Positions 16,099 through 48,217 of a stretch of 64,000 bases of DNA are shown one piece after another. The position numbers and the translations under genes were made by a program. The notes under the pieces were generated by a model, which was given only the letters and a program-made list of their open reading frames with translations, had not been told where the DNA came from and did not search any database. Position 1 is the stretch's first letter; every line of letters begins with the position of its first letter. This DNA is from an uncultured Methanomassiliicoccales archaeon (GTDB taxonomy: Archaea > Thermoplasmatota > Thermoplasmata > RBG-16-68-12 > JAJISG01), in NCBI GenBank assembly GCA_964347325.1, contig CAYFYA010000009.1, forward strand, positions 4,685 to 68,684, given 5' to 3'.

Positions 16099-16106
16099 TC
16101 ACTCAC

Positions 16107-17492: not shown

Positions 17493-17493
17493 G

Positions 17494-18051: not shown

Positions 18052-18064
18052 CTCGTTCTGGCGC

Positions 18065-18301: not shown

Positions 18302-18317
18302 TCTTTTTCACCTCTTT

Positions 18318-20297: not shown

Positions 20298-20619
20298 GAA
20301 CTGCCTCCTCGAACCTCTTGAGGAGAAGCTCAATGGCCCGGTCGACCTTACCCGATGCAACTGCCCTTATTCTCTGGGCTTCTTCGTTTCCCCTTTCGAG
20401 TATTTCCTTGAGCTCAGCTTGCATGGCCGCCGCGGCAGCCTCAAGGACTTCCTGATACCGCCTCTCTGCCTGCTGTCGGAGATCGGCCTCGAGGTTCAAG
20501 GACTCCCCCTTAGCCTTCCGGAGCCGACGATCCTTTTCCTCCTCAGACCTGGCTTTGAGGTCCCGGACTTGTCGCTCCGCTTCCCTTACCTTCTCGAGGG
20601 CTTCCAGCCGCTGAGCCAT
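20284..20619 (-). CDS. atpH: A-type ATP synthase subunit H
   Basis: 111-aa charged coiled-coil (MAQRLEALEKVREAERQ...), first gene of the operon. The longer ORF-track extension was rejected. Confidence 0.7.
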   Translation of the reverse strand: MAQRLEALEKVREAERQVRDLKARSEEEKDRRLRKAKGESLNLEADLRQQAERRYQEVLEAAAAAMQAELKEILERGNEEAQRIRAVASGKVDRAIELLLKRFEEAVHAET

Positions 20620-24930: not shown

Positions 24931-25572
24931 GTGCATCGCTTAAATCAGGATGAGGGCTTCATGCCGACAGTGGCGCCGAAAGAAGCCAAGGCTCTGTTGA
25001 CGGAAGCTCAGCGGGCCCTCGAGGCGGGCCAATTCGAAGATGCGAAGCGGGTCATCGAGGATGCCTACGCTCAGCATCCGCACGATGAGAAGGTTCTCGA
25101 GCTGTACCAGCAGATTCTCCTGGCGGACGGTGTCCGCCTCTCCCGGAGGGCCCGCGATCTGCGACGAGACGGCATCAAAGCCTTGGACAAGCGCGATAGG
25201 GCTTCCTTCAGCGATGGCGAGGATGTTAGGGCGGCCTTCGAGAGGTCCATCGAGAGTTTTGACAAGATCCTAGCGGCCAACCCTGAGAACTCTAAGGCCC
25301 TGATGCTGAAGGCTGGTGCCTTGGACAGGATGGACAGAGAGGGCATGGGGGAGGAGGTGTCGGCGCTGTTCGAGAGGGCTCTGGAACTCCATCCGGATAA
25401 CGAGGAGATCCTCTACGCGAGAAGCAGAATAATGGGGGCGTGTCAGCATTGCGGAGGTTCTGGATTCTGCGGTGAATGCAAAGGTTCGGGGGAGGTCTCA
25501 GCCGTCTTCATGCGAGGTGCATGCCCAGCCTGTAAGGGGTCGGGCGTATGCACTCACTGCGGTCTCTTCTGA
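24931..25572 (+). CDS. TPR-like helical protein with C-terminal DnaJ-type CxxCxGxG zinc-finger repeats
   Basis: Four repeats: CQHCGGSG, CGECKGSG, CPACKGSG, CTHCG. The helical N-domain is TPR-like. The alternative start M at 24961 is more likely. Confidence 0.65.
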   Translation: MHRLNQDEGFMPTVAPKEAKALLTEAQRALEAGQFEDAKRVIEDAYAQHPHDEKVLELYQQILLADGVRLSRRARDLRRDGIKALDKRDRASFSDGEDVRAAFERSIESFDKILAANPENSKALMLKAGALDRMDREGMGEEVSALFERALELHPDNEEILYARSRIMGACQHCGGSGFCGECKGSGEVSAVFMRGACPACKGSGVCTHCGLF

Positions 25573-26039
25573 GGGGACAACTCGATATCCGCTACCGCAG
25601 GAGGATCGACCAAGTCAGTTGTTGCGGCCCGTGGACTAGCCGGGGGTCTAGGATCGACCCTGAGGATTCCGGCTTCTTCCGCTAGGTCGTGGGAGAATTC
25701 CATACACTGGTAGGTATGCTGGCCAAGGATGTTGGCCGGGATCGTGACGTTGAAGACCGTGCTCCTCGCAGGGACCACAAGGCCGAATATACCGAAGTTT
25801 GGCAGTGCGAATGTGTGTTGCACGTCCCCCGAGCTGATGTTGAGGATGATCACGTCTCCGAGCGTCACGTTGATTTCGTCAGGGTCAATGCCTGAGAGGG
25901 ACATCTCCATTTTGATGTACACTTTCGGAGCGTCGGGGATATGTACGGGCTCCGTGGGTCTGTAGAGCAAAGCGAAGATTATCGTGACAAGCAGGAAGAT
26001 GATGAAGAGGACCATAGCACTCCTCATCCAGGGCTGCAT
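25554..26039 (-). CDS. membrane-anchored cupredoxin-like protein
   Basis: N-terminal TM helix, then a beta-rich domain with candidate copper ligands HTFALP...YQCMEFSH. Confidence 0.55.
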   Translation of the reverse strand: MQPWMRSAMVLFIIFLLVTIIFALLYRPTEPVHIPDAPKVYIKMEMSLSGIDPDEINVTLGDVIILNISSGDVQHTFALPNFGIFGLVVPARSTVFNVTIPANILGQHTYQCMEFSHDLAEEAGILRVDPRPPASPRAATTDLVDPPAVADIELSPQKRPQ

Positions 26040-26252
26040 GTTGGCTACATAACTATCTAGGCTTTAATATTATTGCCTCTCGATAATCAATCCTGGCACC
26101 GTGACGTCTCTTCGTCTGGGCGGGGTGGACCGGAGGCGCCGGGAGGAAATTGCGGGACGACAAGTCCCGGAATATGGGATAGCCAGGAACCCCCTAACGT
26201 ATTTATACGCCAGCATCCTACGCCGACCGGGCGTGGGAGCACTGGAGGGTTG

Positions 26253-26900
26253 ATGGTGGCGAAGGGAGACCACAAAACAACTTCCACCGGGCTTGCGCTC
26301 GTTGGACTTCTGGTCTTTCTCACGACCCTTACAGGGATCCCGGTGCCGGTGGCGGCGGGACCCGTGACCGTGACCTACGTCATTGAGCTCACGGACGCTC
26401 TTACCTTCGAACTAGATCAGATCATCACGGCGCCGGGGGCAAACGTCACACTTCACTTGAGAAACGTCGGACAGGCGCGACACACATTCACACTTTATAG
26501 TGATGTGAACGTCTCACTCCCGCTGGACACCGAACAGGCCCTGTTCGCCTACTACCAAGACCAGCTAACGGCCTTGATTCTGGATGAGACTCTGGAGGGT
26601 GGGGAGGAGCGAACGGTCAACTTCACGGCCCCTGAGACTGTAGGGATCTACGCCATTGCCTGCATGATCCCCGGCCACGCAAGGGGGGGCATGGTGGGCT
26701 CGATGGTGGTTGGGGCGGTCGGGGGACTTCCGGCGGAGGAACCTGAAGCCGAGCAGGGCATTCCCCTCAGGGCTTACTGGATCGGACTCATTGGTATCTT
26801 CGCCATGATTGCCGTGATTGGAGTGGCCTATTTCGCCATCAAGTCTGAGAGTCGCCACCACACCGACCAGAGGGAGCACAGGAGGCGAGGACTGCCTTGA
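26253..26900 (+). CDS. halocyanin/plastocyanin-like blue copper protein with C-terminal membrane anchor
   Basis: Signal peptide. Type-1 Cu ligands H(TFTL)...C-M-I-P-G-H-A-R-G-G-M (canonical CxxPGHxxxGM). C-terminal TM helix. Start taken at M 26253. Confidence 0.8.
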   Translation: MVAKGDHKTTSTGLALVGLLVFLTTLTGIPVPVAAGPVTVTYVIELTDALTFELDQIITAPGANVTLHLRNVGQARHTFTLYSDVNVSLPLDTEQALFAYYQDQLTALILDETLEGGEERTVNFTAPETVGIYAIACMIPGHARGGMVGSMVVGAVGGLPAEEPEAEQGIPLRAYWIGLIGIFAMIAVIGVAYFAIKSESRHHTDQREHRRRGLP

Positions 26901-27172
26901 GCGAGCTCATCCGGTCGGAGCCACCCACAGAGTCGCTTGGAGCCCTGGTGATGATCTACATCCTGACATTCATGCTGATCTTCTTTGGAATCCTGGTGGT
27001 CTTGGGACTATTCTACGGATGGAACGTTGTTTGGCTCTCGCTCTGGCTCGGGGCGATCTTCATCGTGGCCGCTGTCATTACAGACCTCTATCGGAAGCAC
27101 TTTTTGCCCGACGAGATGGTTGTCAAAACTAGGATGCCGAAGATCATCCCACGAAGGGAGTTGAGGAAGTAG
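26897..27172 (+). CDS. small two-TM membrane protein
   Basis: 91-aa hydrophobic ORF translationally coupled between the halocyanin and Rieske genes. Confidence 0.5.
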   Translation: MSELIRSEPPTESLGALVMIYILTFMLIFFGILVVLGLFYGWNVVWLSLWLGAIFIVAAVITDLYRKHFLPDEMVVKTRMPKIIPRRELRK

Positions 27173-27922
27173 ATGCCTCGAAGAGGAATTCCAGAGGATG
27201 GGATTACTCGCCGGACCTTCCTTAAAGGAGCGTCAATCGCCGGTGGTGCGGCTCTTGCGGGCGTTGGCGTGTACGGAACAGTTCGGTCGCTCGTATCCCC
27301 GCCGGTAACTGTCCAAGGAACCGTTCAGGATACCTTCATCTACGTGCGACCAGAGGGGGCGCTCCTCCCGATCTGGTACGACGGCCTATTCGGCGAGGAG
27401 GCTCGTCTCAGCCACTTCGACGTCGAGCGTGGTGCCAATGTCCTATGGAAGGTCGTCATCGATGGTGACGGACAGATTGTACCTTTCACCGGCTTCCCCG
27501 GTCTCATCCTCAGGATGGAGGAGGACGTCCTCGAGTTTCCCGAAGGCTTCCCGCGGGACGATTATGTGCTGAACGGCCTCTACGCTATCTTCAATTGCTG
27601 TCCGCACGCCTGCTGCCGTCCCGGGTTCCAGTTAATACCCAGGACTTCCTACTTGATCGATCCAGGCTACGAGACCGTGTACTGCCCCTGCCACGACTCT
27701 CAGTACAACCCTCGGCGCCTCGAAAAGTCGGCTCACCCCCCGCCCCCGGATGCCAGCGGAGCTGAGTATGTCGGTATCTACAAGGAACCCGGTCTTGGCC
27801 CTGCCGACCGAGGAATGCCACTGATTCCCCTGGAGCTCGAGGGGGACAAGCTCGTAGGCGTTGCAAAGAACGAGTCTTGGTACCAGTACCTGGACTTCAA
27901 GCGGCGCGTCATTCCGGAGTGA
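27173..27922 (+). CDS. petA: Rieske [2Fe-2S] iron-sulfur protein with Tat signal
   Basis: Twin-arginine signal RRTFLKGASIAGGAALAG. Rieske boxes CCPHACC (CxH) and CPCHDS (CxCH). Confidence 0.85.
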   Translation: MPRRGIPEDGITRRTFLKGASIAGGAALAGVGVYGTVRSLVSPPVTVQGTVQDTFIYVRPEGALLPIWYDGLFGEEARLSHFDVERGANVLWKVVIDGDGQIVPFTGFPGLILRMEEDVLEFPEGFPRDDYVLNGLYAIFNCCPHACCRPGFQLIPRTSYLIDPGYETVYCPCHDSQYNPRRLEKSAHPPPPDASGAEYVGIYKEPGLGPADRGMPLIPLELEGDKLVGVAKNESWYQYLDFKRRVIPE

Positions 27923-28689
27923 GACACTTGGCTAGGAAGCCCTTTGGCGGACTGAGGAAGTACATCTTCGACTGGTTCGCCGAGCGCTTCCCTGTTACAC
28001 CGTGGGCCGAGGCTACCAGGAAGGCCTTCCTCTCAATCCATCGTCAGATGCCCAGGAGCCACGCTGAGAAGTATGAGCTCAAGACCATCTGGTACTGGTA
28101 CCCTCTGTACTGCCTAGGCGGCCTGGCGTTCATTAGTTTCATAATCCTGACGATTACGGGGATAGTCCTGGGGTTCTACTACGTTCCAGACGGCAACATC
28201 CGCATCCTCTCCGATGGGAGCACCACGTCCGGGGCCTATGAGAGCCTCGTGTTCATCATGGGTGAGGTGCCCTTGGGTTACGTCTGGCGCGGCGTCCACC
28301 ACTGGGCTGCACACATCTTCGTAGCGGCCGTCTTCCTCCACATGGCGCGGGTCTACTTCACCGGCGCTTACAAGAAGCCACGGGAGCTCAACTGGATCTT
28401 CGGGATCCTTCTCCTCCTGATCTCCCTCGGGTTTGGCTACACCGGCTACCTGCTCCCGTGGAACAGCCTGGCTTTCGCTGCTGCGACCATTGGCATCAAC
28501 ATGGCCAAGTCGATTCCGATCATAGGGGATCTAACGGCCGAAATCATGTTTGGGGGCCTATCCCTCGGGGCGAACACTGTCCTCAGGATGTACTGGCTTC
28601 ACATATTCGTCCTCCCGCTGATCGGGATTGGACTGATGCTCCTCCACATGACCATCGTCTGGGTTCAAGGAGTGGCCGAACCTCACTGA
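27919..28689 (+). CDS. petB: cytochrome b (b6-like N-terminal heme-binding half)
   Basis: YFTGAYKKPRELNWIFGILLLLISLGFGYTGYLLPW and conserved His in TM helices. GTG start overlapping the Rieske stop. Confidence 0.85.
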   Translation: MRHLARKPFGGLRKYIFDWFAERFPVTPWAEATRKAFLSIHRQMPRSHAEKYELKTIWYWYPLYCLGGLAFISFIILTITGIVLGFYYVPDGNIRILSDGSTTSGAYESLVFIMGEVPLGYVWRGVHHWAAHIFVAAVFLHMARVYFTGAYKKPRELNWIFGILLLLISLGFGYTGYLLPWNSLAFAAATIGINMAKSIPIIGDLTAEIMFGGLSLGANTVLRMYWLHIFVLPLIGIGLMLLHMTIVWVQGVAEPH

Positions 28690-28698
28690 GGTGGAGCA

Positions 28699-30057
28699 GT
28701 GCAGAGTAGAGCGGTGGAGAGCGTCGTCACAGAAAGGCGGGTCGGGTTTCCAACCCAATACGGGCCAACTAGGACCGACAAGAAGCCCGGACATGTCCTC
28801 GTGCCCCACGAGGCCTACAGGGACCTAGTCTTGATTCTAGTCATGACAGGGGCGATGTTCATCCTGACGGCCGTTGCCACGCCCGCTCTCGGCAAGTCCG
28901 CCAATCCAAACGTGGTGGCCGAGGTCGAGCTCCCCGATTGGTACCTCCTCTGGTCATGGGGCCTGCTGAAGATCTCAGAGCTCTTCCCCCAGTTCTCCAT
29001 CTTTGGTTTCACCATCACTACCCTGACCTGGGGTGCTGTTCTCTCCGGCGTCCCCTTCATCATTGTACTACTGCTCCCCTTCATAGACAAGGGGTTTGAG
29101 AGAAGGCCTGCCAAGTCTCCCATCCGGGCTGCCTTCGGCGTGGCCGGTATCGTCTGGGTCTTCGCCGCTTCGGTCTACTCCGTCAACGTCCTGATTCTGC
29201 CCCGCTTCACCACAGCTGAGGGGCTCTCCATCGTTACCGACGATACCCTGAAGTGGATGTTCATCGTCCAGCCAGTCCTATCGGGCATGGTCACCTACAT
29301 CGCCATGAGGCGGCTCGCCTTCAAGCCCATGAGGAGATACAACACCGCTTTCAACGCCTTTGCCCTCTCCATCGTCCTCCTGATCACAATTCTCCTCCTG
29401 GGTTCTGGGCTCGCGGCAGGGGGAAGCTTCGCATCCCACCTGACAGGCCAGAACGTCTACCTGACGTTCTACGTCAGCATCGCAGTCCTAACCACCCTCG
29501 TCGCCCTCTTCATTGTGTTCTTCCAGGACGAACAGCGGGGTAGGCGGACGCTGTTCCTGTGGATCGGCCTGGCGTTTCTACTCCTGGTCCCCCTCACTTG
29601 GTACCTGATGGCCTTCGACCAGCAATCCTTCGACTACGTCCAAGTCTACATCATGACAAACGCCCACATCTTCATCGCCTTCCCCGTCTTCTCAGTTCTG
29701 GTGGCCTACTTCGGCCAGCGGACGCCCTACAGCGACTACGAGTACAAGCTAAACGAGTGTTACCAGTGCGGTCGGTGCCACCTAGTCTGTCCCATCACTA
29801 AGGTGGAGGCCGATGCCCTCGGGGGGCTCAACCTGGTCTACAACGTCTACAAGCGCCAGCACGACGGCGTCCCGATGTGGTCCTGCCTCACCTGCGACGC
29901 CTGCAGTGCTGTCTGTCCCCTAGACATAAACTACTCCGCGTACGTGTTGACGGAGCGGGCGAAGGTCATGAAGGCGAAGCAGCGAATTCCGACGGAGAGG
30001 CCGACCATGGTTTCCGGCCTTACGGTGGCCGACGGCGGTACGGAGGTGAGGCCCTGA
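28699..30057 (+). CDS. cytochrome b C-terminal/subunit-IV-like domain fused to extra TM helices and a 2x[4Fe-4S] ferredoxin domain
   Basis: PDWYLLW (PEWY-type Qo motif) in a multi-TM region. C-terminal CYQCGRCHLVCP and CLTCDACSAVCP (two CxxCxxCxxxCP motifs). Confidence 0.75.
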   Translation: MQSRAVESVVTERRVGFPTQYGPTRTDKKPGHVLVPHEAYRDLVLILVMTGAMFILTAVATPALGKSANPNVVAEVELPDWYLLWSWGLLKISELFPQFSIFGFTITTLTWGAVLSGVPFIIVLLLPFIDKGFERRPAKSPIRAAFGVAGIVWVFAASVYSVNVLILPRFTTAEGLSIVTDDTLKWMFIVQPVLSGMVTYIAMRRLAFKPMRRYNTAFNAFALSIVLLITILLLGSGLAAGGSFASHLTGQNVYLTFYVSIAVLTTLVALFIVFFQDEQRGRRTLFLWIGLAFLLLVPLTWYLMAFDQQSFDYVQVYIMTNAHIFIAFPVFSVLVAYFGQRTPYSDYEYKLNECYQCGRCHLVCPITKVEADALGGLNLVYNVYKRQHDGVPMWSCLTCDACSAVCPLDINYSAYVLTERAKVMKAKQRIPTERPTMVSGLTVADGGTEVRP

Positions 30058-30068
30058 GGCCGGAGGAG

Positions 30069-31061
30069 ATGGGATTCCCCATGAGAGATCTGACGGCAGG
30101 GGAGCGCACCGTCCCTCACCCGATCATGTTCGCCGCCCTCGACAAGGAGGCGGAGTGGGAGGACATCCCCGACGTCGAGATTACGCAGAAGAGTGACTAC
30201 GCCTACTATCCGGGCTGCGTCGACTACTACGACTACGAGATGCAGTTCAGCAGGAACAACTTCGGGGATACGGACCACGGCATCATCTTTGACTCCTCAA
30301 TCAAGCTCCTGAAGGCCATCGGCATTGCCCCCGTTGTCCTGGATCGCTCCTTCATGAAGTGCTGTGGCCACGACCAGCTCTGGCAGGGGAAGGTGGACGT
30401 CTGGACAAAGCTGCGGGAGTACAACGAGAGACTCATGAAGCGCATCTTCGAAGAGGCCGGAGTCAAGACGCTAGTCGTCAGCTGCGCAGAGGGCTATCGC
30501 ACCTTCAAGCTCGATTACGACCTCGGAGAGGTGGAGGTAAAGCACATCACTCAGGTGCTCTACGACCAGGGCATCGAGTTCCGCACTCGCAGGAAGGAAC
30601 TTATCACCTACCAGGATCCCTGCCGGATGTGCCGCCAGATGCCCATAGATCCCGTCTACGAGGAGCCGCGGGAGCTCATCCGCCAGACCGGGGCTGACCT
30701 TGCGGAGATGGAGCACTTCCGGGCGGACGCGACCTGTTGCGGCGTCGCGGGGATGATGTACTGCAACGAGAAGACCAAGGGGATCACGAACGACCGCATG
30801 ATGGAGGCGAAGGAGAGGGATGTGGACTACCTCCTCACAGCGTGTCCGAAGTGTCTGACCCATTTCGGTTGCCAGCAGCACGAAAACTTGTACAGAGAGG
30901 ACCGGGAGGCCTTTCGGTTCCAGGTCATCGACATCACCCAGTACCTGGCCGAATGTCTCGACGAGACCTCCGCTGAAGCCCTGGCGGGTGAGAGGGACGA
31001 GGTGGATAAGCCCCTCCCGAGCCCTGTGGCCAAAGGTGGAGGGTCGGAGGCCTCGCCTTGA
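30069..31061 (+). CDS. CCG-domain protein (HdrB/GlpC/HdrD-like), two cysteine-rich CCG domains
   Basis: YYPGC...CCGHD...C and DPCRMC...TCCGVAGMM...CPKC form two Cx(n)CCGx(n)CxxC modules. Confidence 0.8.
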   Translation: MGFPMRDLTAGERTVPHPIMFAALDKEAEWEDIPDVEITQKSDYAYYPGCVDYYDYEMQFSRNNFGDTDHGIIFDSSIKLLKAIGIAPVVLDRSFMKCCGHDQLWQGKVDVWTKLREYNERLMKRIFEEAGVKTLVVSCAEGYRTFKLDYDLGEVEVKHITQVLYDQGIEFRTRRKELITYQDPCRMCRQMPIDPVYEEPRELIRQTGADLAEMEHFRADATCCGVAGMMYCNEKTKGITNDRMMEAKERDVDYLLTACPKCLTHFGCQQHENLYREDREAFRFQVIDITQYLAECLDETSAEALAGERDEVDKPLPSPVAKGGGSEASP

Positions 31062-31468
31062 CGGAGACACAGGCCGTGCACGAGCCGAGACTGGCGCGTC
31101 ACCGCTCCCGTCAGACGGCGAAGAAGAGCTTCGACGAGATGCGGCGCAACTTCGTCATCAAGTATCCGCGCGGGAAGGGCGTGGTGGCCTACGTCTACGA
31201 GGATATCTGCATGGGCTGCATCCACTGCGCAGACAACTGTCCTGAGAACGTTAGGCCCGATCACGAGGATGCCATCGTCTTCACGGACAAGACATCCTAC
31301 TTGCCCGACCTCAGCTTCGAGACGAGAAAGTCCCTAATCGTGGATGAGAACTGCATCGGGTGCGCCAAGTGCGCGGTCATATGTCCGGTGGAGGCCATTG
31401 TCATGGTCCCACGACCAGGCTGGGAGGTCGTGGACGGTCAACCGGTTGAGATGAAGTCGGAGGCGTGA
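31058..31468 (+). CDS. 2x[4Fe-4S] ferredoxin (NuoI-like)
   Basis: CMGCIHCADNCP and CIGCAKCAVICP. The N-terminal FVIKYPRGKG resembles the NuoI TxxYPxEKG region. Confidence 0.7.
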   Translation: MTETQAVHEPRLARHRSRQTAKKSFDEMRRNFVIKYPRGKGVVAYVYEDICMGCIHCADNCPENVRPDHEDAIVFTDKTSYLPDLSFETRKSLIVDENCIGCAKCAVICPVEAIVMVPRPGWEVVDGQPVEMKSEA

Positions 31469-31794
31469 CCTTGGGTGAAGCTGACGAGGTTCATGAGAGG
31501 CCCCGCTGGCCCCGTAAGATGACCCGGAAGGCGGAGATGAGGCTCATCAAGCAGCTCCCGGGTCTCCAGAAGATCATCCTCATCACCAAGGTCTCTGCCG
31601 TCATCCTCTTCGCAATCGGCCTGGAGGGGCTCTTCATAGGGAACTGGTGGATGGCTGGCATCTTCCTCACCCTGGGCCTAATCTTCACGATTTGGCCCAT
31701 CAAGATGGATGTCCCCAACTTGTGTCCCAAGTGTGGGCAGGCGGCCAAGAAGAATCAGACCGTCTGCCACAACTGCGGAGTCGCCCTCATGTAG
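31465..31794 (+). CDS. small membrane protein with C-terminal zinc ribbon
   Basis: Two TM helices then CPKCG...CHNCG. Last gene of the operon. Confidence 0.5.
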   Translation: MTLGEADEVHERPRWPRKMTRKAEMRLIKQLPGLQKIILITKVSAVILFAIGLEGLFIGNWWMAGIFLTLGLIFTIWPIKMDVPNLCPKCGQAAKKNQTVCHNCGVALM

Positions 31795-31801
31795 ACCCTA
31801 A

Positions 31802-33211
31802 TCAGCCCCTGGGGACCCATAGCAGCCTCGAGGGGTTGATAACGAGAGGTAGATCCACCCTAGCTTTGATCTGACGGACTAGGCCGAAACGCCTCTCAGC
31901 ATCGGCGTCAGGATCCAGGAGATGGATGAGCTGGCTGCTCCGCAGCCTGCACGGGTGTTTCCCGGCAATCTCCAACAGCTCCACGGCGCGGTCGAATCGC
32001 TCACCTCGTCCCGCTCGTTCGGTGACGAAGGGAATTAGGCTGACCGTACCCCCTTCGTGGAGGGAGCCAGCCAGACCAACGGCCGGTCCGCGGACCTCCT
32101 GCCAGCTTGCCAGATCCGCCAGGAGCGGTGGAAGGTCCGCCGTGGAGAGTCGGATTTCTGCCAGGGGGGTCATCCGCGGCTCCCTCGTGACTCCCGATGT
32201 CTGGCCGTAGACGCCGTCCTCTCTCAGAAAACCTTCGCCGAAGGCGGTATCGACGGCCCTTACCTGGGCTCCAAAGGTTTCCTCTGTTCCGTGGAGGAAC
32301 ACAGTCACGTTTTCGCCCTTCCTTTCCGGAGCGTCCCTCGAGGAGGTCGTGTCGCCGAAGAAGACCGCTAAGGGGTGGACTCCAACCCCGGGGATTTTCT
32401 GGAGGGTAGTTCCCACCTCCTCCCAGTCCTTTAGGATGTACGTAAGGGATCTGAGGTCTTCTGCTGAAGGCATCAGCGAGAAGGTCACGGAAAGCGGTAT
32501 GGTAAGACTGCCTCCAGCCAACAGTAGCAACGAGTTCAGGTCGTAGCCAGTCGCGTTGTTGGGTACTTCGTCGAAGCCGCTTTCGCCGTACCCCCCGTCG
32601 GATCCGACGAAGTCCACGTTCCTGATGCAAGTCTCGGGACCTCCTCTGTAAGAGGACAGGATTGTCTCGCCGCGGACGATGTCGCCCATGAAGGAGTCCA
32701 TGGGCAAGGTAGCAAAGAGGGGCAGAAACCAGCCCGCCGCCCTCGCAGCGTCACAGGCGTCGCTCCACCTGGCGCCCACACCGGCTCTAAGGATGCCGTT
32801 CTCCTTGTCGACGTCCACATCGTCGAAGGATGAGAGGTCCAGCAGGAAGCCATCCAACTGTGGGAGGACTTCGCCATCGAAGGGGTCGACCCGTGGAGTC
32901 CAGTCCACGGTGACTTCGCGGTCCCTCATCATCTCTAAGCTCCGGCGGACGTAGTGGAGGGTGTCGCCTTTGAGACCGAGGCTTACAGACGCCACCTCTC
33001 CAGTCGCGACACCGATGGCACTGGAGACGTCGTCCGCCTCTTCCATCGGCAACGTGACAACACTGACGCCATCGAAGAGTCGCTTCAGCTCCTCCGGAAG
33101 TACGCGCCTGTCTCTGAGGTAGAGGGCCTTTGCCTGCTCCGTACTTCGGAGGGTTCTCAATCCAGGCAGGCCAGAGACCATGTCCCTGAAGTCAGCGTAA
33201 GGGATGGGCAA
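31802..33211 (-). CDS. FAD-binding oxidoreductase (divergent GlcE-like subunit)
   Basis: PCMH-type FAD-binding N-domain pattern. Translationally coupled to the upstream GlcD-like gene. Confidence 0.6.
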   Translation of the reverse strand: MPIPYADFRDMVSGLPGLRTLRSTEQAKALYLRDRRVLPEELKRLFDGVSVVTLPMEEADDVSSAIGVATGEVASVSLGLKGDTLHYVRRSLEMMRDREVTVDWTPRVDPFDGEVLPQLDGFLLDLSSFDDVDVDKENGILRAGVGARWSDACDAARAAGWFLPLFATLPMDSFMGDIVRGETILSSYRGGPETCIRNVDFVGSDGGYGESGFDEVPNNATGYDLNSLLLLAGGSLTIPLSVTFSLMPSAEDLRSLTYILKDWEEVGTTLQKIPGVGVHPLAVFFGDTTSSRDAPERKGENVTVFLHGTEETFGAQVRAVDTAFGEGFLREDGVYGQTSGVTREPRMTPLAEIRLSTADLPPLLADLASWQEVRGPAVGLAGSLHEGGTVSLIPFVTERAGRGERFDRAVELLEIAGKHPCRLRSSQLIHLLDPDADAERRFGLVRQIKARVDLPLVINPSRLLWVPRG

Positions 33212-33212
33212 T

Positions 33213-34733
33213 CTACCTCCTCCTTCTGGTCTTGGTCACGTACTTCTCCGAGGGCATCAGCCACCGGAGACGCCCAAGGGCCCTCAAGCCGAACCTCATC
33301 AGGCCGGGGGGTATCTCCGGTGGCACGAGCGGGGGCTTCCTTCCCATGGTCCCCACCAGCTTCCCCCGGTTGACCACGGCCTCGGGGTCGACGGCTTCCT
33401 TGATGGCCCTGAACATCCCACTCACGTTTCCGAACATGGTCTCCAGGTTGTAAGTCATCAGGAGCCCCAGCCCCAGAGGATGGCCCCCCGTATCTGTGAG
33501 AATCCTGTGAAACTTCTCCACGAACGTAATAGCGAGCTGTCCCCGAAGGAGCCTCTCGTTCGTAAGCATGTAGGGGGCCAGGTAGGCCGAACCGCGGTCG
33601 ACGAGGAACCCGTGGAAGGCCACCTCGCCTTTGGACTTCCTTCCGGCCTTCTGAGTGGCCTCCATAACGTGACCCAAGGCGCTCAGGGGCACTAGTCCCT
33701 CCCCGACGACGAGCCCGCCAGAGATTCGCCGCGCATTGTAGGGCTCGTGCCGTCCCTCCCAGAGAGCCGTCGCCACCTCACTGCCCTCCTTCACGCCACC
33801 CGCAGCGGACAGTACCGTTCCAGCGTAGACATCCTCCTCAGCGATGCTCTCCTTGTCCCCTTGGTAGGCCAGGTAGGCCATGGCAGGTCGCTCCGGAAGG
33901 GACTTCCCGATCCCTGCCTGGAGGGTGAGATGAGCACCGTCGACGAACCCGACGTGGTAGGGGGTAATGCAGATTCTGGAGAGTTGACGGAGGGCGCTAA
34001 CGATACTCTGAAGTGACTCGAAGCTGTAGGCGGAGACGCTCGTGGCCTTGGGCCTGGGAATGAGCTGTAAGGTTGCCTTCGTAATCACGCCAAGCGTCCC
34101 CTCAGCGCCCAAGAAGAGGTTCGTCGAGTTGTGGTTTCCCAGACCCAACCCGAAAGTCCGCACACCCGTCTCCAGAATCTCCCCTCCTGGGAGTACGACC
34201 TCGAGGCTCCTGACCCAACGGGAGGGGGGACCGTACATGTATGAGCCTATTCCGACTCCACCGTCGCTGAGGAATCCGCCCACGGTGGAGGACCTGTGAA
34301 GGATTGGGACTACTGGGAGGGCGAGGTCCTGCTCGCCCAATGCCTCGGAGGCCTGATGCCACGTTGCACCCGCTTGGACGGTAACGCACGACCGAATCTC
34401 ATCTGGGTCGTCCACTCTCTTCATCAGGCTGGTGACCATCAGAATGCCCCCGACATTTGGCACTGAACCCCCGTGGAGGGAGGTGCCCCCGCCGCGGGGG
34501 ACGACCGGAATCTCCAGCTCCTCCCCCAGCTGTAGGATCCGAACGACCTCTTGGGTGGACTTGGGCAGTGCAATGATGTCTGGCTTCATGTTGAACTGCA
34601 GGCCAGCCTGCTTCGGGATCGGAGCCAAATCGTGGCCATAGACGAGCTTCTCCGTCTCAGAGGTCGAGACCCGCTCCTCTCCGAGGGTGTCTACGAGCCG
34701 TTTATAAGCGTAGCTAAGGTCGCTGTAAACCAT
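33213..34733 (-). CDS. FAD-linked oxidase (GlcD / D-lactate dehydrogenase family)
   Basis: VVPRGGGTSLHGGSVP FAD-binding motif and the GlcD-like C-terminal domain. Confidence 0.8.
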   Translation of the reverse strand: MVYSDLSYAYKRLVDTLGEERVSTSETEKLVYGHDLAPIPKQAGLQFNMKPDIIALPKSTQEVVRILQLGEELEIPVVPRGGGTSLHGGSVPNVGGILMVTSLMKRVDDPDEIRSCVTVQAGATWHQASEALGEQDLALPVVPILHRSSTVGGFLSDGGVGIGSYMYGPPSRWVRSLEVVLPGGEILETGVRTFGLGLGNHNSTNLFLGAEGTLGVITKATLQLIPRPKATSVSAYSFESLQSIVSALRQLSRICITPYHVGFVDGAHLTLQAGIGKSLPERPAMAYLAYQGDKESIAEEDVYAGTVLSAAGGVKEGSEVATALWEGRHEPYNARRISGGLVVGEGLVPLSALGHVMEATQKAGRKSKGEVAFHGFLVDRGSAYLAPYMLTNERLLRGQLAITFVEKFHRILTDTGGHPLGLGLLMTYNLETMFGNVSGMFRAIKEAVDPEAVVNRGKLVGTMGRKPPLVPPEIPPGLMRFGLRALGRLRWLMPSEKYVTKTRRRR

Positions 34734-34788: not shown

Positions 34789-35238
34789 CTAGATTCCCAG
34801 GGCCTCTGAGATGCTATCCTTCAGCTGGTCAGCGTCCAGGCCCTCATAATCCAAGTCCAGGGCGCGAGCGACGGCCTTGAGCTTGGACTTGGTGACCTTC
34901 TCTAGGGAGGCGATGATGGCCCGCTTCAGGTCCCGCTCCTTACGGCCCAGAACCTCGATGTCAAGCTCCTGCGCGGCCTCCACGACTCGGGGACTTATCT
35001 CAACCACTGTCTGTATTGGCCTCTCAGATCTGGCCTCGGCAAGCTCCTCCTGTATCTCTCTCTCCACCCTGGCCCTTCCCCGTCGAAACTCCCCCAAGGC
35101 CCGTCCAATACCACGAGCTAGCTCGGGAATCTTCTTCGGCCCAAGCAGGAGCAGGACGGCGATTATGACCAGAATGATGATGGGCTCGAATCCCGACAAT
35201 CCAAACTGCGCGACGATATCGGGGAGCGAGGGCAACAC
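34789..35238 (-). CDS. tatA: twin-arginine translocase subunit TatA/E with extended charged C-terminus
   Basis: FGLSGFEPIIILVIIAVLLLLGPKKIPELARGIGRALGEFRRG. The exact start (TTG or GTG) is uncertain. Confidence 0.75.
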   Translation of the reverse strand: MLPSLPDIVAQFGLSGFEPIIILVIIAVLLLLGPKKIPELARGIGRALGEFRRGRARVEREIQEELAEARSERPIQTVVEISPRVVEAAQELDIEVLGRKERDLKRAIIASLEKVTKSKLKAVARALDLDYEGLDADQLKDSISEALGI

Positions 35239-35328
35239 CAAGAGTACACCTACCAAAGAGTAGTAGCTTCAGAGGCATATATCTTTTTGCAGCCTGGATA
35301 GCTTCAGGCACGGCCCAGAGGACAGCTC

Positions 35329-37041
35329 TCAGCTCTCAGATAGGACCGTGAAGATGGCCCCGAACCTGAGGTCGACGTAGAATGTGAAGGTGAACTCTGA
35401 GGCAAAGTCCCCGCTAACCCAGGAGGTGAGGCCTTCGGCGTGGGTCCAGGATGAGGATCTCGTCATGAAGAGGTGGATGCCGTAGGCGTCCAAGGTCTCA
35501 TCCTCCACACCCGCTGCAAAGGTGTACGTCTGGTTGGGGTCAAGCAGTTCGGACGCCGTCGCCTCAAGCCTCCAGTCTGGGCTTGTTGAGGAGAAGATAC
35601 CGCTCCTCAGCTTCATCAGCTGCCCCGGGTCGGGGGGTCGGATACCCGACTCGCTCAGCTCTACCGAATCCGTTGATCCGGGCGACGCACTGTAGCTTAC
35701 CACGTACGACTCCCCCTGGACCGCCTCCCCCGGATCGAGGAGTGAGTTTCGGTTCGCATCGGAGAACTCCTTTCGGAGAAGAAGGCTGTAGCCGAGATTG
35801 AGACCTAGCATGTAGACCAGAGAGTCCCCATTCGATGCCGAAAGGACCAGTTCATCGTTATCGGGGGATTCCCATAGAGCCGGGAGGAGGGTCAGTTCAT
35901 CGGGCGCGCTGACGTGCAGGGCACTACTCGCTGGTTCCTCGGCTTCGAAGGTGACCTCCAGTCCCTCGTCCGAGGTTCCTGACCAGAGGAGGATGACCGG
36001 CGTCTCGTTACTGGCCTCCAGGACACTCCCCGTTCGGACGCCCGGGGCAAAAGGGCTGGCTGAGTAAAGCACAAACCCCGGAACTTGCAGGGTCACGTTT
36101 CCGGTGGTCAGGAGGGTATCCGCCCTCGCAAGGGGTGGTGCCAGAAGGCCCTGGTTGAAGTAGAGAAAGCCCCCAACGCTGGCCACCACGACGACTGCGA
36201 CCACGGACCAGACAGCGACGGCCGACCTACCGCCCCTTTCCGGGGGTTCTTGCCCTTCGCGTCTGCTCCAGGCCCTCCTCGACATGAGGTAGCCTCCAAC
36301 GTAGAGGAGGGACATGGGGACCGCCACAAGGAACATGGTGATCCCGCTTCCATCGGGCGTGATGAAGGCTCCGAAGAGAAAGAAGGCGATAGTCGCATAC
36401 CGCCAGTTCCGCTTCCAGAAGTCGGGACCGATTATTCCCAACGCTCCAAGCCCCCACATGATCACAGGGGTCTGGAAGGCCAATCCCATTCCGACGAAGA
36501 AGAGGAGGACAATATCGAAGAACTGTTCCGGCCCCACCAAGGGAGCCAGCCCCATGTTAACCCCAATGCCGTAGAGAAAGTCGAAGGCGAAGGGGAGAAT
36601 CACGAGCTGGGCGACCAGGACCCCGCCCACAAACAGCAGCGTTCCTGGCACCGTTATCTTGAGGATGATTCTCTTCTCCCTCTCGTAGAGCCCCGGCGCC
36701 ACGAACTTGGCCAACTGGTAAACAATCCATGGCATCGCCGTAAGCACGGCCAGGAACAGGGAGACCTTGAACTGGGTGACGATGGCCTCCCAGGGGTTCA
36801 ACTGCACCCGCTCGACGAAAACGGGCAGCAGGCTGTCCATGAAGCCCCGGATCACCATGACGGAGATGGAGTTGTAAAACTCTGGCCAGGGATAGGGCCA
36901 AGGTACGCCGAGGTATGGCTGTACGCGAATGGTGAAGCTCATGTAGAACACGAAGAGTGGCATCACCACCCACAGAATCTTGAAGACCCTCTGGCGCAGC
37001 TCCTCCAGGTGCTGGAGGATACTCATCGGCCGGTCTCCCAT
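35329..37041 (-). CDS. tatC: TatC with ~300-aa C-terminal extracytoplasmic extension
   Basis: N-terminal TatC signature (SILQHLEELRQRVFKILWV..., 6 TM). An extra TM helix and a Ser/Thr-rich domain follow the TatC core. Confidence 0.8.
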   Translation of the reverse strand: MGDRPMSILQHLEELRQRVFKILWVVMPLFVFYMSFTIRVQPYLGVPWPYPWPEFYNSISVMVIRGFMDSLLPVFVERVQLNPWEAIVTQFKVSLFLAVLTAMPWIVYQLAKFVAPGLYEREKRIILKITVPGTLLFVGGVLVAQLVILPFAFDFLYGIGVNMGLAPLVGPEQFFDIVLLFFVGMGLAFQTPVIMWGLGALGIIGPDFWKRNWRYATIAFFLFGAFITPDGSGITMFLVAVPMSLLYVGGYLMSRRAWSRREGQEPPERGGRSAVAVWSVVAVVVVASVGGFLYFNQGLLAPPLARADTLLTTGNVTLQVPGFVLYSASPFAPGVRTGSVLEASNETPVILLWSGTSDEGLEVTFEAEEPASSALHVSAPDELTLLPALWESPDNDELVLSASNGDSLVYMLGLNLGYSLLLRKEFSDANRNSLLDPGEAVQGESYVVSYSASPGSTDSVELSESGIRPPDPGQLMKLRSGIFSSTSPDWRLEATASELLDPNQTYTFAAGVEDETLDAYGIHLFMTRSSSWTHAEGLTSWVSGDFASEFTFTFYVDLRFGAIFTVLSES

Positions 37042-37929: not shown

Positions 37930-38388
37930 TTGGGCAGGGATAAAGTGGCCTTTGAGGATGACCTCGTAAAGGACTTGAAGAAGCGGTTCCCCGACGACGT
38001 CAAGGAGGCAACGGTCTCAAGACCTGGCCGGGTGAAGGCCTCGGTGACCCGAGACGGGTTGCGCCAGGTCTGCTTCTTTCTCAGGGAGGAGAAGGGGTTC
38101 GAGCACATCTCGTGCATTTCGGGTGTCGACTGGGTGGATCGCCTGGAGAACATCTACCACATCCTCTCGTACGAGAACGAGTGCATCATTCAGGTCAGCG
38201 TCGAAATTCCCGCAGACGACCCTTCAGTGCCAACAGTCTCGGAGATATGGAAGGGGGCCCTCTTCCACGAGCGAGAGGCCTATGATATGTTGGGGATCGA
38301 CTTTCAGGGCCATCCAGACCTTCGGCGAATCCTGCTGCCGAACGACTTCAAGTTCCATCCGCTGCGGAAGGACTACACGGGGGAGTGA
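37930..38388 (+). CDS. nuoC: NADH-quinone oxidoreductase subunit C (30 kDa)
   Basis: EREAYDMLGIDFQGHPDLRRILLP motif. Follows nuoA directly with no nuoB between them. TTG start. Confidence 0.85.
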   Translation: MGRDKVAFEDDLVKDLKKRFPDDVKEATVSRPGRVKASVTRDGLRQVCFFLREEKGFEHISCISGVDWVDRLENIYHILSYENECIIQVSVEIPADDPSVPTVSEIWKGALFHEREAYDMLGIDFQGHPDLRRILLPNDFKFHPLRKDYTGE

Positions 38389-39473
38389 TCGTGGCTGAGA
38401 CGATGTGGATAAACATGGGTCCACAACACCCCATGACCCATGGCCTGTGGAACCTCCGCATCAAGGTCGATGGTGACACCATCGTCGACGCCGACCCGGA
38501 GATGGGCTACCTCCACAGAGGAGTGGAGAAGATCTGTGAGGCCCGGGATTATCTAAAGCCCATCGTCCTCATGGATCGCCTCTGCTACGTCTCCTCTCTA
38601 ACGTGGGCCCACGTGTACTGCGTCGCTGTGGAGGACCTAATGGGGATCGAACCCCCACCCAGGGCCAAGTACCTGAGGGTCATCGGCTGTGAGCTCCAAA
38701 GGATGTCCTCCCATCTCATGTGGCTCGCCGCCTTTCTTGCGGACCTCGGCCTCCTCACGGGGTTCCTTTACAGCCTGAGGGAGAGGGAGCTCGTCCTCGA
38801 CCTCCTGCAGATGATGACGGGTCAGCGGATGAACCAGAACTACCCCAGGCCAGGCGGTGTCCACAACGACATCCCCCCGAACTTCCGCGATGAGATCAGG
38901 AAGGCCTTCAGGTATCTCCGTCCGAAGTTCAAGGAGTATGAGGACTTCCTTGACAAGAGTCCGACCTTCCTGCTGAGGACGCGAGATGTCGGGATTCTGA
39001 AACCGCAGGATGGCGTCAACTACGGGGTCACGGGACCCAACCTTCGAGGAAGTGGTGTCAGGGTGGACGTCCGGGAGATGCACCCCTATGACGCCTACGA
39101 CGAGCTGGATTTTGAACCAGTGATCTACGAGGGCGGTGATGCCTACGCCCGATATAAGGTGAGGATGGGAGAACTTATGGAAAGCATGAAGCTTATCGAT
39201 CAGGCCCTGGACCGGCTCCCGGATGGTCCCTTCCGTGTCAAGGCGCCGAAGAGGGCGGAGGGGGAGGGGTATGCCATCACAGAGGACGCCCGCGGCGAGG
39301 CCCTCATCTACATCATAGGCGACTCGAGCGATCGGCCGTATCGCGTGAAAATCAGATCTCCCATTTTCGTGACCCTCTCGGCGCTCCCGCTGATGCTCCG
39401 CGGCTATACAGTGGCAGATGTGGTCTCCATCACGGGAAGCATCGATGTCTGCGTGGGGGAGATTGACAAATGA
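38385..39473 (+). CDS. nuoD: NADH-quinone oxidoreductase subunit D (49 kDa)
   Basis: NMGPQHPMTHG N-terminus and typical NuoD length. Confidence 0.9.
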   Translation: MIVAETMWINMGPQHPMTHGLWNLRIKVDGDTIVDADPEMGYLHRGVEKICEARDYLKPIVLMDRLCYVSSLTWAHVYCVAVEDLMGIEPPPRAKYLRVIGCELQRMSSHLMWLAAFLADLGLLTGFLYSLRERELVLDLLQMMTGQRMNQNYPRPGGVHNDIPPNFRDEIRKAFRYLRPKFKEYEDFLDKSPTFLLRTRDVGILKPQDGVNYGVTGPNLRGSGVRVDVREMHPYDAYDELDFEPVIYEGGDAYARYKVRMGELMESMKLIDQALDRLPDGPFRVKAPKRAEGEGYAITEDARGEALIYIIGDSSDRPYRVKIRSPIFVTLSALPLMLRGYTVADVVSITGSIDVCVGEIDK

Positions 39474-40651: not shown

Positions 40652-40675
40652 TGGTATCGAGGAGGAGGCTGTGAA

Positions 40676-41462: not shown

Positions 41463-41463
41463 G

Positions 41464-43539: not shown

Positions 43540-43542
43540 CGA

Positions 43543-48165: not shown

Positions 48166-48217
48166 CCCGCCGGTCCTCCTCCAAACCTTGATAAGAGCCC
48201 CGCTTGGTAGTTCGGGT

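Follow-up and report, generated by a model that had tools for sequence, protein, structure and literature searches.

A predicted archaeal Rieske/cytochrome b complex with a built-in Hdr-like iron–sulfur module as a candidate entry point for cytoplasmic electrons

Introduction

Can an archaeal complex III take up electrons from the cytoplasm in addition to oxidizing quinol? The question is raised by a gene cluster in a 64,000-nucleotide stretch of DNA (the window, whose numbering is used throughout) from an uncultured Methanomassiliicoccales archaeon (assembly GCA_964347325.1, contig CAYFYA010000009.1, positions 4,685 to 68,684 of the forward strand). In this cluster, genes for a Rieske protein and a split cytochrome b stand together with genes for an Hdr-like iron–sulfur (Fe-S) module, and one gene encodes a fusion of the two systems. 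Rieske/cytochrome b complexes and Hdr-like modules are each known, while their covalent union is uncharacterised and has been mentioned in passing alone. An initial annotation, made from the DNA sequence without database searches, had read the locus as a quinol oxidase coupled to an additional low-potential or thiol/disulfide-linked electron route. Here, we examine the domain content, residue conservation and genomic distribution of this system and weigh how electrons may pass through it.

Results and discussion

A fusion protein joins cytochrome b subunit IV to an Hdr-like iron–sulfur module

Eight genes lie on the plus strand at 26253-31794 with one divergent minus-strand gene beside them, and all nine were found at the coordinates given in Table 1. 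Their order is type-1 cupredoxin (cupA), DUF7318, Tat-dependent Rieske protein, cytochrome b6-like N-half, fusion protein, two-CCG-domain protein (CCG protein), ferredoxin-like subunit (Fdx) and zinc-ribbon membrane protein (ZnR). The genes are densely packed: cupA and DUF7318 overlap by 4 bp, DUF7318 and the Rieske gene abut with a 0-bp gap, gaps of 9 and 14 bp precede and follow the fusion gene, and both the CCG/Fdx and the Fdx/ZnR junctions are 4-bp overlaps. The Rieske and cytochrome b genes overlap by 4 bp if the latter starts at the GTG at 27919, or by 46 bp if it starts at the TTG at 27877. Because several of the genes overlap and no gap between neighbours exceeds 14 bp, and because their order is invariant in about 90 related loci, we regard the cluster as one unit, in agreement with the tightly coupled plus-strand operon initially proposed. 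A TATA-like AT-rich stretch was also recognised by eye upstream of cupA, in the divergent intergenic region (26040-26252). From this organization, we infer that the genes at 26253-31794 encode one membrane complex in which all of the products assemble together.

Domain calls were made by Pfam and NCBIfam scans with curated cut-offs, and residue conservation was scored in orthologue sets compiled for each protein (fusion, n=82; CCG protein, n=67; cytochrome b, n=70; Rieske protein, n=66; CupA, n=58; Fdx and ZnR cysteines, n=13 each; minus-strand protein, n=7). The domain families that had been expected at the cluster, CCG, Fer4_8 and Cytochrom_B_C, were all matched, the last of them weakly and slightly under its cut-off (19.8 bits against 20.7, residues 68-160 of the fusion). 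The same part of the fusion carries the Qo motif PDWY at residues 79-82, with P79 invariant and D80, W81 and Y82 each kept in 82/82 orthologues; PDWY has been tied to menaquinol oxidation (PMC4122944). At the other end of the protein, a Fer4_8 domain (residues 351-410) contains two CxxCxxCxxxCP motifs, the cubane-cluster hallmark of the HdrD/HdrBC/EtfD family, whose cysteines (C354...C364 and C396...C406) are each kept in 81-82 of the 82 sequences. PDB matches were obtained to the QcrB C-half (1.5e-6) and to HdrC (1.5e-4), and the Fe-S domain resembles HdrC as well as the N-termini of GlpC, GlcF and HdrD.

Hydropathy combined with the positive-inside rule and the AlphaFold2 (AF2) model agree on eight transmembrane (TM) helices with both termini inside, and AF2 predicts a continuous 8-TM bundle with a confidence score (pLDDT) of 85-98 for residues 140-340. 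The eight helices and the positive-inside rule together place the Fe-S domain in the cytoplasm and PDWY on the outward side. The added module is thus predicted to sit on the cytoplasmic (N) face of the membrane, the side that houses heme bH, heme ci and the Qi site in solved relatives. A Foldseek search with the model returned an actinobacterial QcrB C-half as its sole match (E ~4e-3) and no match for the four extra helices, in which no additional heme is expected because they contain no conserved histidine.

About 200 homologues of the fusion, 435-458 aa in length, were detectable, and all of the named sources are metagenome-assembled genomes of Thermoplasmata, Thermoplasmatota or 'Methanobacteriota'. 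One longer protein, P0043 (682 aa), was considered as a natural fusion of cytochrome b, subunit IV and Fe-S domain and was rejected, its N-terminus being an out-of-frame extension of the open reading frame (ORF).

The arrangement recurs in related archaea and has single-chain variants

Related loci were drawn from one-genome-per-species contigs, long contigs and metagenomes. Wherever the contig is long enough, the order from cupA to ZnR is invariant; it was found on about 90 independent contigs, many of them from soil, down to 43% fusion identity and across many samples and assemblers. The cluster is common in uncultured Thermoplasmatota from the metagenomes of soil, sediment and marine origin covered by our search.

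To survey the wider subfamily, we combined a profile search with the CCG protein, a scan for the fusion in 1.84 billion representatives and Pfam scans of the matches. Three arrangements emerged. In the first, as in the window, Fe-S and CCG domains are on separate chains. In the second, found in a relative from the group that NCBI names Poseidoniales, Fer4 and CCG form one chain beside a split cytochrome b (YCLGG, PDWY). In the third, present in other archaea, one polypeptide of 543-626 aa combines subunit IV, Fer4 and two CCG domains. These single-chain relatives indicate that the Fe-S domain and the CCG protein together constitute a split HdrD-like unit anchored on subunit IV. They also speak against a separate GlpABC-type unit for the CCG and ferredoxin genes, and support a physical joining of the Rieske/cytochrome b module to the Hdr-like Fe-S/CCG module. 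Moreover, a sister group of the module (~40% identity) occurs in soluble HdrC-HdrB-HdrA-MvhD clusters, which suggests recruitment of an Hdr-type module to a Rieske/cytochrome b complex.

Two of the single-chain loci bring further redox partners. On a contig of GCA_046757245.1 (L099:123-11710; Candidatus Geothermarchaeales according to NCBI), genes for DUF7318, a Rieske-like protein, cytochrome b and a single-chain subunit IV + Fer4 + 2xCCG protein are followed by genes for FrhB-like, HdrA-like (1019 aa), MvhD/FlpD, HdrD-like, GcvH-like (lipoyl-carrier type), GlcD-like and again HdrD-like proteins; this locus may represent a flavin-based bifurcating system with a Rieske/cytochrome b outlet. On JABAOF010022875.1 (L098:5092-13875), a pentaheme cytochrome c, a 77-aa two-TM protein, a Rieske protein, a cytochrome b (with YCFGG) and a single-chain subunit IV + Fer4 + 2xCCG protein are encoded, with HdrC-like and HdrB-like genes downstream and, further on, a polyferredoxin and MvhD. 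The partner genes of both loci encode cytoplasmic electron-donating modules, and the HdrA-, MvhD- and FrhB-linked variants suggest flavin-based bifurcation with the Rieske/cytochrome b complex as the high-potential outlet. As a side observation, the record prefix of L098 is shared with L017, a contig whose fusion gene is 100% identical to that of the window; the L098 and L017 contigs probably come from the same sample.

The Rieske/cytochrome b core retains its quinol-oxidizing machinery and a heme-ci motif

The cytochrome b N-half scores about 200 bits with the NCBIfam ExtP and cytochrome b6 models, as compared with 88 bits for archaeal SoxC, and its best PDB match is cytochrome b6 (1vf5_A, 2.3e-40). 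Its heme histidines (H141/H142, H155, H242 and H257) are kept in 69-70/70 orthologues, and the four align with the conserved positions of helices B and D in 1vf5_A. The cysteine expected to bind heme ci (C79) is kept in 69/70, within a YCLGG motif that aligns with YCLGG of b6 and is the same in b6 and heliobacteria; on this evidence, heme ci would be present in the complex. Located at the Qi site on the N side, heme ci has been proposed as the ferredoxin entry point of b6f (Dibrova 2017, PMC5600118). The CxGG motif has been listed for Firmicutes, cyanobacteria/chloroplasts and one bacterial clade exclusively (Kao & Hunte, PMC4122944).

In the window as in all of the related loci, cytochrome b is split between helices D and E, and judged by its sequence it is a 'green-clade' split b6f-type cytochrome b. 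The helix count departs from that class, with 4 + 8 helices instead of the 4 + 3 of the b6f-type subgroup. No c-type heme motif occurs in the cluster, where the sole CxxCH sits within an Fe-S motif.

The Rieske protein has the full set of cluster ligands and disulfide cysteines (C143-P-H145...C148 and C171-P-C173-H174, kept in 66/66). Its box II reads CPCHDSQY (C171-P-C173-H174-D-S176-Q-Y178), with S176 kept in 65 and Y178 in 64 of the 66 sequences; in haloarchaea, this serine and tyrosine have been taken to indicate a high-potential cluster (PMC3509893). Domain matches and ligand conservation thus uphold the assignment of a Rieske/cytochrome b quinol oxidase module, and its Q-cycle machinery looks intact.

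On the outer (P) side, CupA matches Copper-bind and SoxE slightly under the Pfam cut-offs and finds the blue copper protein 6kol (4.9e-5), together with auracyanin and rusticyanin, in the PDB. Its complete His...Cys...His...Met set of type-1 copper ligands (H77, C137, H142 and M147) is kept in 56-58/58 orthologues, which supports the initial proposal of a cupredoxin as electron acceptor: CupA is likely to receive electrons from the Rieske protein on the P side.

Two blue-copper proteins had been proposed for the locus, of which CupA is the sole credible one. The minus-strand protein gives a signal for a COX2/N2OR-CuA-like fold (Pfam COX2, E=0.0027, 18.1 bits against a 22-bit cut-off; PDB matches to N2OR/COX2 at E ~3e-3). 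It has a single cysteine, and its putative copper ligands vary (H117 and H108 are each found in 1/7 orthologues), and we reject it on that ground as a second blue copper protein; from these sequences, copper binding of any sort appears doubtful. Its gene is confined to the loci of a close clade.

DUF7318 occupies the same position, between the cupredoxin and Rieske genes, in nearly all related loci, and in the Geothermarchaeales cluster, too, a DUF7318 gene precedes the Rieske-like gene. The protein probably serves as a small subunit in archaeal Rieske/cytochrome b complexes of this type; a literature search for DUF7318 returned nothing.

The CCG protein is closest to EtfD and is accompanied by ferredoxin and zinc-ribbon subunits

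The CCG protein matches the NCBIfam models TfrB, LdhH and HdrB. Its best PDB match is Mycobacterium smegmatis EtfD (9ojn, 5.8e-14 in a profile search), with HdrB found as well, and a Foldseek search with the AF2 model (pLDDT 80.6) ranked EtfD first (1.6e-14), followed by LutA and HdrB. Twelve positions, C49, C97, C98, C138, E140, C184, C222, C223, C231, C258, C261 and C267, are invariant in 67/67 orthologues. Of these, C231 and C267 come in addition to the cysteines of the two C...CCG...CxxC patterns, and H100 and H264 are further invariant residues. In CCG domain 1, C49, C97, C98 and C138 are present and the CxxC element reads C-A-E-G, so that one cysteine is missing. Mapped onto EtfD by HMMER alignment, C97-C98 corresponds to C538-T539, C138 to C581, E140 to His583 and G141 to Cys584; the Hdr 'bridging' cysteine of this domain has thus been replaced, with C-A-E-G here as against C-P-H-C in EtfD. 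The KCCGHDQLWQGK and SCAE[CG]YRTF motifs are kept in the split-form CCG proteins, with close variants in the fused sequences. Between clades, the CCG protein is ~60% identical, as compared with ~44% for the fusion and ~30% for the Rieske protein, and is by this measure under strong constraint and among the most conserved subunits.

The eight cysteines of the ferredoxin-like subunit are invariant in 13/13 orthologues, and its gene holds the same position in all loci with enough flank. The initial label of a NuoI-like ferredoxin stands as far as its two [4Fe-4S] clusters are concerned; the NuoI assignment itself does not, since the NuoI scores (25.7 bits against 113 for TIGR01971; 35 against 217 for NF004541) are no better than that of RnfB (39.4 against 68.7) and all lie under the cut-offs. 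In the literature, the subunit has been called 'RnfB-like' (PMC9038741). Rnf genes are absent, and the nuo genes stand apart in an operon of their own at 37.9-48.2 kb. Neither Fdx nor the CCG protein has an N-terminal hydrophobic stretch able to act as a signal peptide.

The four ZnR cysteines (C87, C90, C101 and C104) are kept in 13/13 orthologues, its gene is conserved in synteny, and the protein is likely to serve as a tether or assembly subunit.

As known alternatives for the module, GlcF, GlpC, RnfB and NuoI were each rejected, all scoring far under the curated cut-offs; the GlcF model NF008434, for instance, is touched by the Fer4 part alone (23 bits against a cut-off of 333). Nor is the b-heme anchor of the NarI/HdrE type, as its place is taken by subunit IV of the Rieske/cytochrome b complex.

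A proposed route for cytoplasmic electrons into complex III

Drawing from the relationship to EtfD, we propose that electrons enter complex III from the N side through the HdrD/EtfD-like Fe-S chain, a reading by analogy to which we give about an even chance of being right. The core would be a menaquinol oxidase of the Rieske/cytochrome b type that passes electrons to the membrane-anchored type-1 cupredoxin on the outer face, whereas the N-face chain would consist of the 2x[4Fe-4S] domain of the fusion, the CCG protein, the ferredoxin subunit and the zinc-ribbon tether. A cytoplasmic donor would reduce the distal clusters; the cubane clusters would then relay the electrons to heme ci/bH for the reduction of menaquinone at Qi, and the resulting menaquinol would be oxidized at Qo by the normal Q cycle, delivering electrons to the cupredoxin and on to a terminal oxidase. 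Candidate donors are reduced ferredoxin, acting via the RnfB-like subunit, and/or a flavoprotein, either the GlcD/GlcE-like pair encoded next to the cluster or ETF.

We infer the direction of flow from the analogy with EtfD and from the HdrA/MvhD/FrhB-type partners in relatives, and the donors likewise; a flavoprotein donor has local support because a GlcD/GlcE-like pair lacking GlcF adjoins the cluster. Additional points in favour of entry are the organization of the genes as a unit, the covalent tether and its topology, the replacement of the bridging cysteine of CCG domain 1 as in EtfD, and the heme-ci motif. A ferredoxin entry point had also been suggested independently for a related locus (Diamond et al. 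2022, PMC9038741).

Several observations weigh on the other side. The direction of electron flow is read from homology and gene context, and the AF2 model gives a pLDDT of only ~35 for the Fe-S domain of the fusion, so that no cluster-to-heme distance can be derived from it. CCG domain 2 keeps the full HdrB-type set (C184, C222, C223, C258 and C261), and with the bridging C258/C261 in place a catalytic disulfide/dithiol site would be possible there. The Geothermarchaeales cytochrome b (L099) is without the heme-ci cysteine, and heme ci is therefore not essential to the association. A ferredoxin:quinone route that does not pump also seems wasteful beside complex I in the same genomic island. 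As to a flavoprotein donor, the GlcD/GlcE-like pair was not detected downstream of the cluster in L028, L064, L066 and L089 (with 3.2-3.4 kb of flank in three of them), a membrane-protein gene following ZnR in L064. Furthermore, the whole island is syntenic, from the A-ATPase through the bc cluster, the FAD-oxidase pair and TatA/TatC to complex I, and the adjacency of the pair may therefore simply be inherited.

The flavoprotein pair could also play a more exclusive part. In a dedicated dehydrogenase, which we consider unlikely, the GlcD/GlcE-like pair (31802-34733) would dock on a split 'GlcF-equivalent' made up of the fusion's Fe-S domain together with the CCG protein. The complex would then act as a 2-hydroxyacid (D-lactate/glycolate-type):cupredoxin oxidoreductase for which ferredoxin is not a physiological donor. 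The GlcD-like protein scores 154 bits with TIGR00387 (glcD), under the cut-off, and is 30% identical to a canonical GlcD encoded elsewhere in the window, and the best paralogue of the GlcE-like protein in the window is the canonical GlcE. No GlcF gene lies beside the pair, whereas the canonical glcDEF set includes one (Fer4_8 + 2 CCG); the organism thus has a complete GlcDEF besides the GlcF-less pair at the bc cluster. A Fer4_8 domain with two CCG domains is what a GlcF/YdiJ/LutA-type partner of such flavoproteins looks like, and the N-terminus of the GlcF encoded in the window can be aligned to the fusion's Fe-S domain (1.7e-4). Where the flank suffices, most loci have the pair directly downstream, relatives of 43-47% identity among them, and L016 has it there despite an inserted regulator gene. 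Against this, the pair is convergent with the cluster and so separately transcribed, and the loci without it and the syntenic island count here as well. The pair is not among the genes called around the module in L097, and in L099 the GlcD-like gene adjoins HdrD-like genes of its own. By BLAST, the CCG protein does not significantly match the window's GlcF; it also reaches no GlcF model, and the extra ferredoxin subunit would be left unexplained. A search with the GlcE-like protein returned 21 close relatives alone and no independent contexts. The pair is best described as a candidate partner or electron donor of the complex.

Slightly less probable, in our judgement, is an exit of electrons on the N side, which comes close to the idea in the initial annotation. 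Of the two electrons released by menaquinol oxidation at Qo, one would go to the Rieske protein and cupredoxin. The other would travel by way of hemes bL, bH and ci to the Fe-S/CCG module, which would hand it on to an acceptor in the cytoplasm; this could be a disulfide at the CCG site or else ferredoxin, reached through the extra subunit. The Rieske box II, of the kind read as high-potential in haloarchaea (PMC3509893), would provide a large driving force at Qo, and the anammox Rieske/cytochrome b complex has been proposed to make NAD(P)H in a similar way (PMC12954380). The module derives from proteins of the Hdr type, as seen from a sister group encoded in HdrC-HdrB-HdrA-MvhD clusters, and the intact cysteine set of CCG domain 2 fits a catalytic role. 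On the other hand, the lineage looks aerobic and heterotrophic, to judge from its respiratory island and beta-oxidation genes, and aerobic heterotrophs make reduced ferredoxin and thiols by other routes. The cluster contains no thiol-carrier gene, one Hdr catalytic cysteine has been lost, and EtfD, the sole characterised aerobic CCG relative, is an entry wire with shielded, non-catalytic clusters. By our reasoning, a transfer from heme bH to a low-potential acceptor would also run uphill. To quinol-driven bifurcation, with the high-potential Rieske/cupredoxin branch pushing the second electron onto a low-potential cytoplasmic acceptor (disulfide or ferredoxin), we assign a slightly lower probability again. 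A low-potential or thiol/disulfide-linked nature of the extra route is not established, and the nearest characterised relative, EtfD, points by analogy to a non-catalytic entry wire.

It is improbable that the module carries no metabolic flux and is a redox-sensing, regulatory or assembly appendage of an ordinary complex III: the zinc ribbon and the extra TM parts have no known catalytic role, but sixteen cubane-cluster and eleven CCG-protein cysteines are invariant, the CCG protein is better conserved than the fusion or the Rieske protein, and relatives couple the module to HdrA/MvhD/FrhB redox enzymes. That the fusion is an artefact of assembly or gene calling and the CCG and ferredoxin genes are unrelated neighbours can practically be dismissed, as nothing favours this for the fusion itself (the ORF extension of P0043 being the one such case seen), and the recurrence of the same ORF in ~200 proteins and on ~90 contigs, the continuous 8-TM bundle and the independent single-chain subunit IV + Fer4 + CCG fusions all contradict it.

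Genomic surroundings of the cluster

The features discussed here are collected in Table 1. TatA-like and TatC genes are conserved next to the cluster, and their products plausibly export the Rieske protein. TatC is 570 aa long, with its domain at residues 10-242 followed by an extension of ~300 aa without a Pfam match; a long TatC is common to the close relatives, and the distant loci L013-L016 have a TatC of 271-288 aa. No methanogenesis genes were found in the window.

Table 1. Coordinates of the gene cluster and of neighbouring features in the window
Feature	Coordinates	Strand	Description
Minus-strand protein	25554-26039	-	161 aa, membrane-anchored by one N-terminal TM; COX2/N2OR-CuA-like fold signal
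CupA	26253-26900	+	Type-1 (blue) copper protein; N-terminal signal or anchor, C-terminal TM anchor
DUF7318	26897-27172	+	Small two-TM protein; PF24002 at 1.5e-13
Rieske protein	27173-27922	+	[2Fe-2S], 249 aa, Tat-dependent; TAT signal, Rieske domain, twin-arginine motif TRRTFLK
Cytochrome b6-type N-half	27877-28689	+	4 TM; Cytochrome_B 2e-38; probable start GTG 27919
Fusion protein	28699-30057	+	452 aa; subunit IV/cytochrome b C-half (helices E-H), four further TM, 2x[4Fe-4S] domain
CCG protein	30072-31061	+	Two CCG domains (CCG 2e-17); HdrB/HdrD-C/EtfD-like, cytoplasmic
Fdx	31058-31468	+	2x[4Fe-4S] ferredoxin-like subunit, 136 aa, cytoplasmic; Fer4 families, two CxxCxxCxxxCP motifs
ZnR	31465-31794	+	Two TM; Zn-ribbon families; predicted cytoplasmic C4 zinc ribbon
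GlcE-like protein	31802-33211	-	469 aa; degenerate FAD_binding_4 (4e-7); convergent, 7 bp beyond ZnR
GlcD-like FAD-linked oxidase	33213-34733	-	506 aa; FAD_binding_4 4e-34, FAD-oxidase_C
TatA-like	34789-35256	-	TatA_B_E match; conserved next to cluster
TatC	35329-37041	-	TatC match; conserved next to cluster
A-ATPase	12323-20360	-	
Complex I	37930-48165	+	
NuoL	41464-43539		
Canonical glcD	55282-56730	+	
Canonical glcE	56727-58034	+	
Canonical glcF	~58034-59314	+	Fer4_8 + 2 CCG
Ras/Roc-family GTPase	42-608	+	
Ras/Roc-family GTPase	11620-12195	+	
Ras/Roc-family GTPase	53024-53734	+	
DUF255 protein	48110-49966	+	618 aa, thioredoxin-like
DUF11-repeat protein	49979-52690	-	903 aa
ORF	5671-7689	-	672 aa; third-position GC 0.81, no Pfam match

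Downstream of the canonical glcDEF genes, SCP2, acyl-CoA dehydrogenase, thiolase and enoyl-CoA hydratase/3-hydroxyacyl-CoA dehydrogenase genes continue on the plus strand to 63965. Of the three ~510-aa ORFs that come after NuoL in the complex I operon, the first two were scanned and are antiporter-like. The ATPase A subunit (589 aa) has no intein, and loci L013-L016 carry inteins in theirs (771-1087 aa). The three small GTPase genes match Pfam Ras at 1.6e-28 to 2.9e-34, and one of them directly adjoins the A-ATPase operon; the DUF255 protein is encoded straight after the complex I operon.

Implications of electron entry at complex III

If electrons do enter as proposed, this archaeal complex III would double as a dehydrogenase, and models that treat it as an ordinary bc1 complex would be incomplete; if instead quinol-driven bifurcation took place, respiration would make reductant directly. 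An Fe-S chain on the N face, which is also that of heme ci and the Qi site, would amount to a natural experiment on the role of heme ci, and the module to a hard-wired natural model for the disputed interaction of ferredoxin with heme ci in b6f. The system therefore bears on whether ferredoxin-type donors reduce Qi directly (the ferredoxin–quinone reductase, or 'FQR', problem of cyclic electron flow), and also on the origin of cytochrome bc complexes from the membrane anchors of dehydrogenases. Three of its features go beyond the initial annotation: the heme-ci cysteine, the convergent GlcD/GlcE-like pair and the equivalence of the module to EtfD.

Comparison with known systems

The architecture had been thought undescribed. 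For the fusion itself this holds, whereas neighbouring hdrD- and rnfB-like genes (PMC9038741) and bacterial cytochrome b-Fe-S fusions (PMC4122944) have been reported, and the precedents are limited to these two papers and PMC6336850. In Candidatus Angelarchaeales, a blue copper protein (BCP) gene lies upstream of the Rieske gene of complex III with hdrD- and rnfB-like genes close by, the locus sits between A-ATPase and complex I, and a ferredoxin entry point was suggested in passing (Diamond et al. 2022, PMC9038741). The layout of the island in the window matches that description. A complex III specific to Marine Group II (MGII), with cytochrome b, Rieske protein and an orphan RnfB, has likewise been reported (Tully 2019, PMC6336850), and both are probably the same system as ours. 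These papers devote one or two sentences to it; the fusion, the split HdrD, the heme-ci motif, ZnR, DUF7318, the GlcD/E-like neighbours and the single-chain variants are undescribed there. Our literature search found no description of the subunit IV fusion or of the split-HdrD nature of the module, no biochemistry, and nothing on a heme-ci motif kept in an archaeon, on the zinc-ribbon and DUF7318 subunits, or on the single-chain and HdrA-linked variants. Pfeiffer & Dyall-Smith 2021 treat the ordinary haloarchaeal petABD alone, and a review of anaerobic methanotrophic archaea (ANME) contains nothing on Hdr-linked Rieske complexes.

With the b6f complexes and 'green clade' of cyanobacteria, Bacilli, Heliobacteria and haloarchaea, the system shares the split after helix D, the four heme histidines and YCLGG. 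It differs in having no cytochrome f or c, in a subunit IV extended by four more TM helices and a cytoplasmic 2x[4Fe-4S] domain, and in the added CCG, ferredoxin and zinc-ribbon subunits. The haloarchaeal halocyanin-Rieske/cytochrome b cluster, itself a 'green-clade' split (Baymann et al. 2012, PMC3509893), resembles it in that a blue copper protein replaces cytochrome c and an eighth helix is present; the haloarchaeal version is without the heme-ci cysteine, whereas the cytochrome b of the window retains it.

Two further systems connect cytochrome b to cytoplasmic redox proteins. In the anammox bacterium Kuenenia, genes for cytoplasmic redox subunits are linked to those of a Rieske/cytochrome b complex, although the added subunits are FAD/NAD(P)-binding and multiheme proteins, in contrast to the Hdr-like Fe-S/CCG module found here. 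That complex has been proposed to link the low-potential chain to NAD(P)H and to generate it (PMC12954380). In the PDWF-FeS clade (Magnetospirillum, Turneriella, Alicycliphilus), a cytochrome b with a Qo motif is likewise fused to a 4Fe-4S domain, a whole cytochrome b being combined with 4Fe-4S and an MvhD or flavin oxidoreductase domain (Kao & Hunte 2014, PMC4122944). Those proteins are bacterial, carry PDWF and have no Rieske gene in the cluster, whereas the present system is archaeal, carries PDWY and has kept the Rieske protein and cupredoxin.

Finally, the module itself is most like those of EtfD (Rv0338c/MSMEG homologue; 9ojn), HdrDE and DsrMK, which likewise combine a b-heme protein of the membrane with two cubane and two CCG clusters on the cytoplasmic face. 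In EtfD, ETF supplies the electrons, which the CCG clusters and then two cubanes relay to heme b and menaquinone. The CCG clusters of EtfD are shielded and fully ligated, a feature that the authors of that work interpret as adaptation to air (PMC13083937). Both EtfD and the CCG protein have one Hdr catalytic cysteine replaced; the latter has a CC pair where EtfD has C-T and a glutamate where EtfD has His583, and the module is split here over two polypeptides and supplemented with a ferredoxin subunit. Whereas EtfD, HdrDE and DsrMK use a five-helix anchor of the NarI/HdrE type, the anchor here is a Rieske/cytochrome b6 + subunit IV complex with Qo and Qi sites. By analogy, the system of the window may thus be pictured as an EtfD/HdrDE/DsrMK-type module grafted onto a b6f-type complex III.

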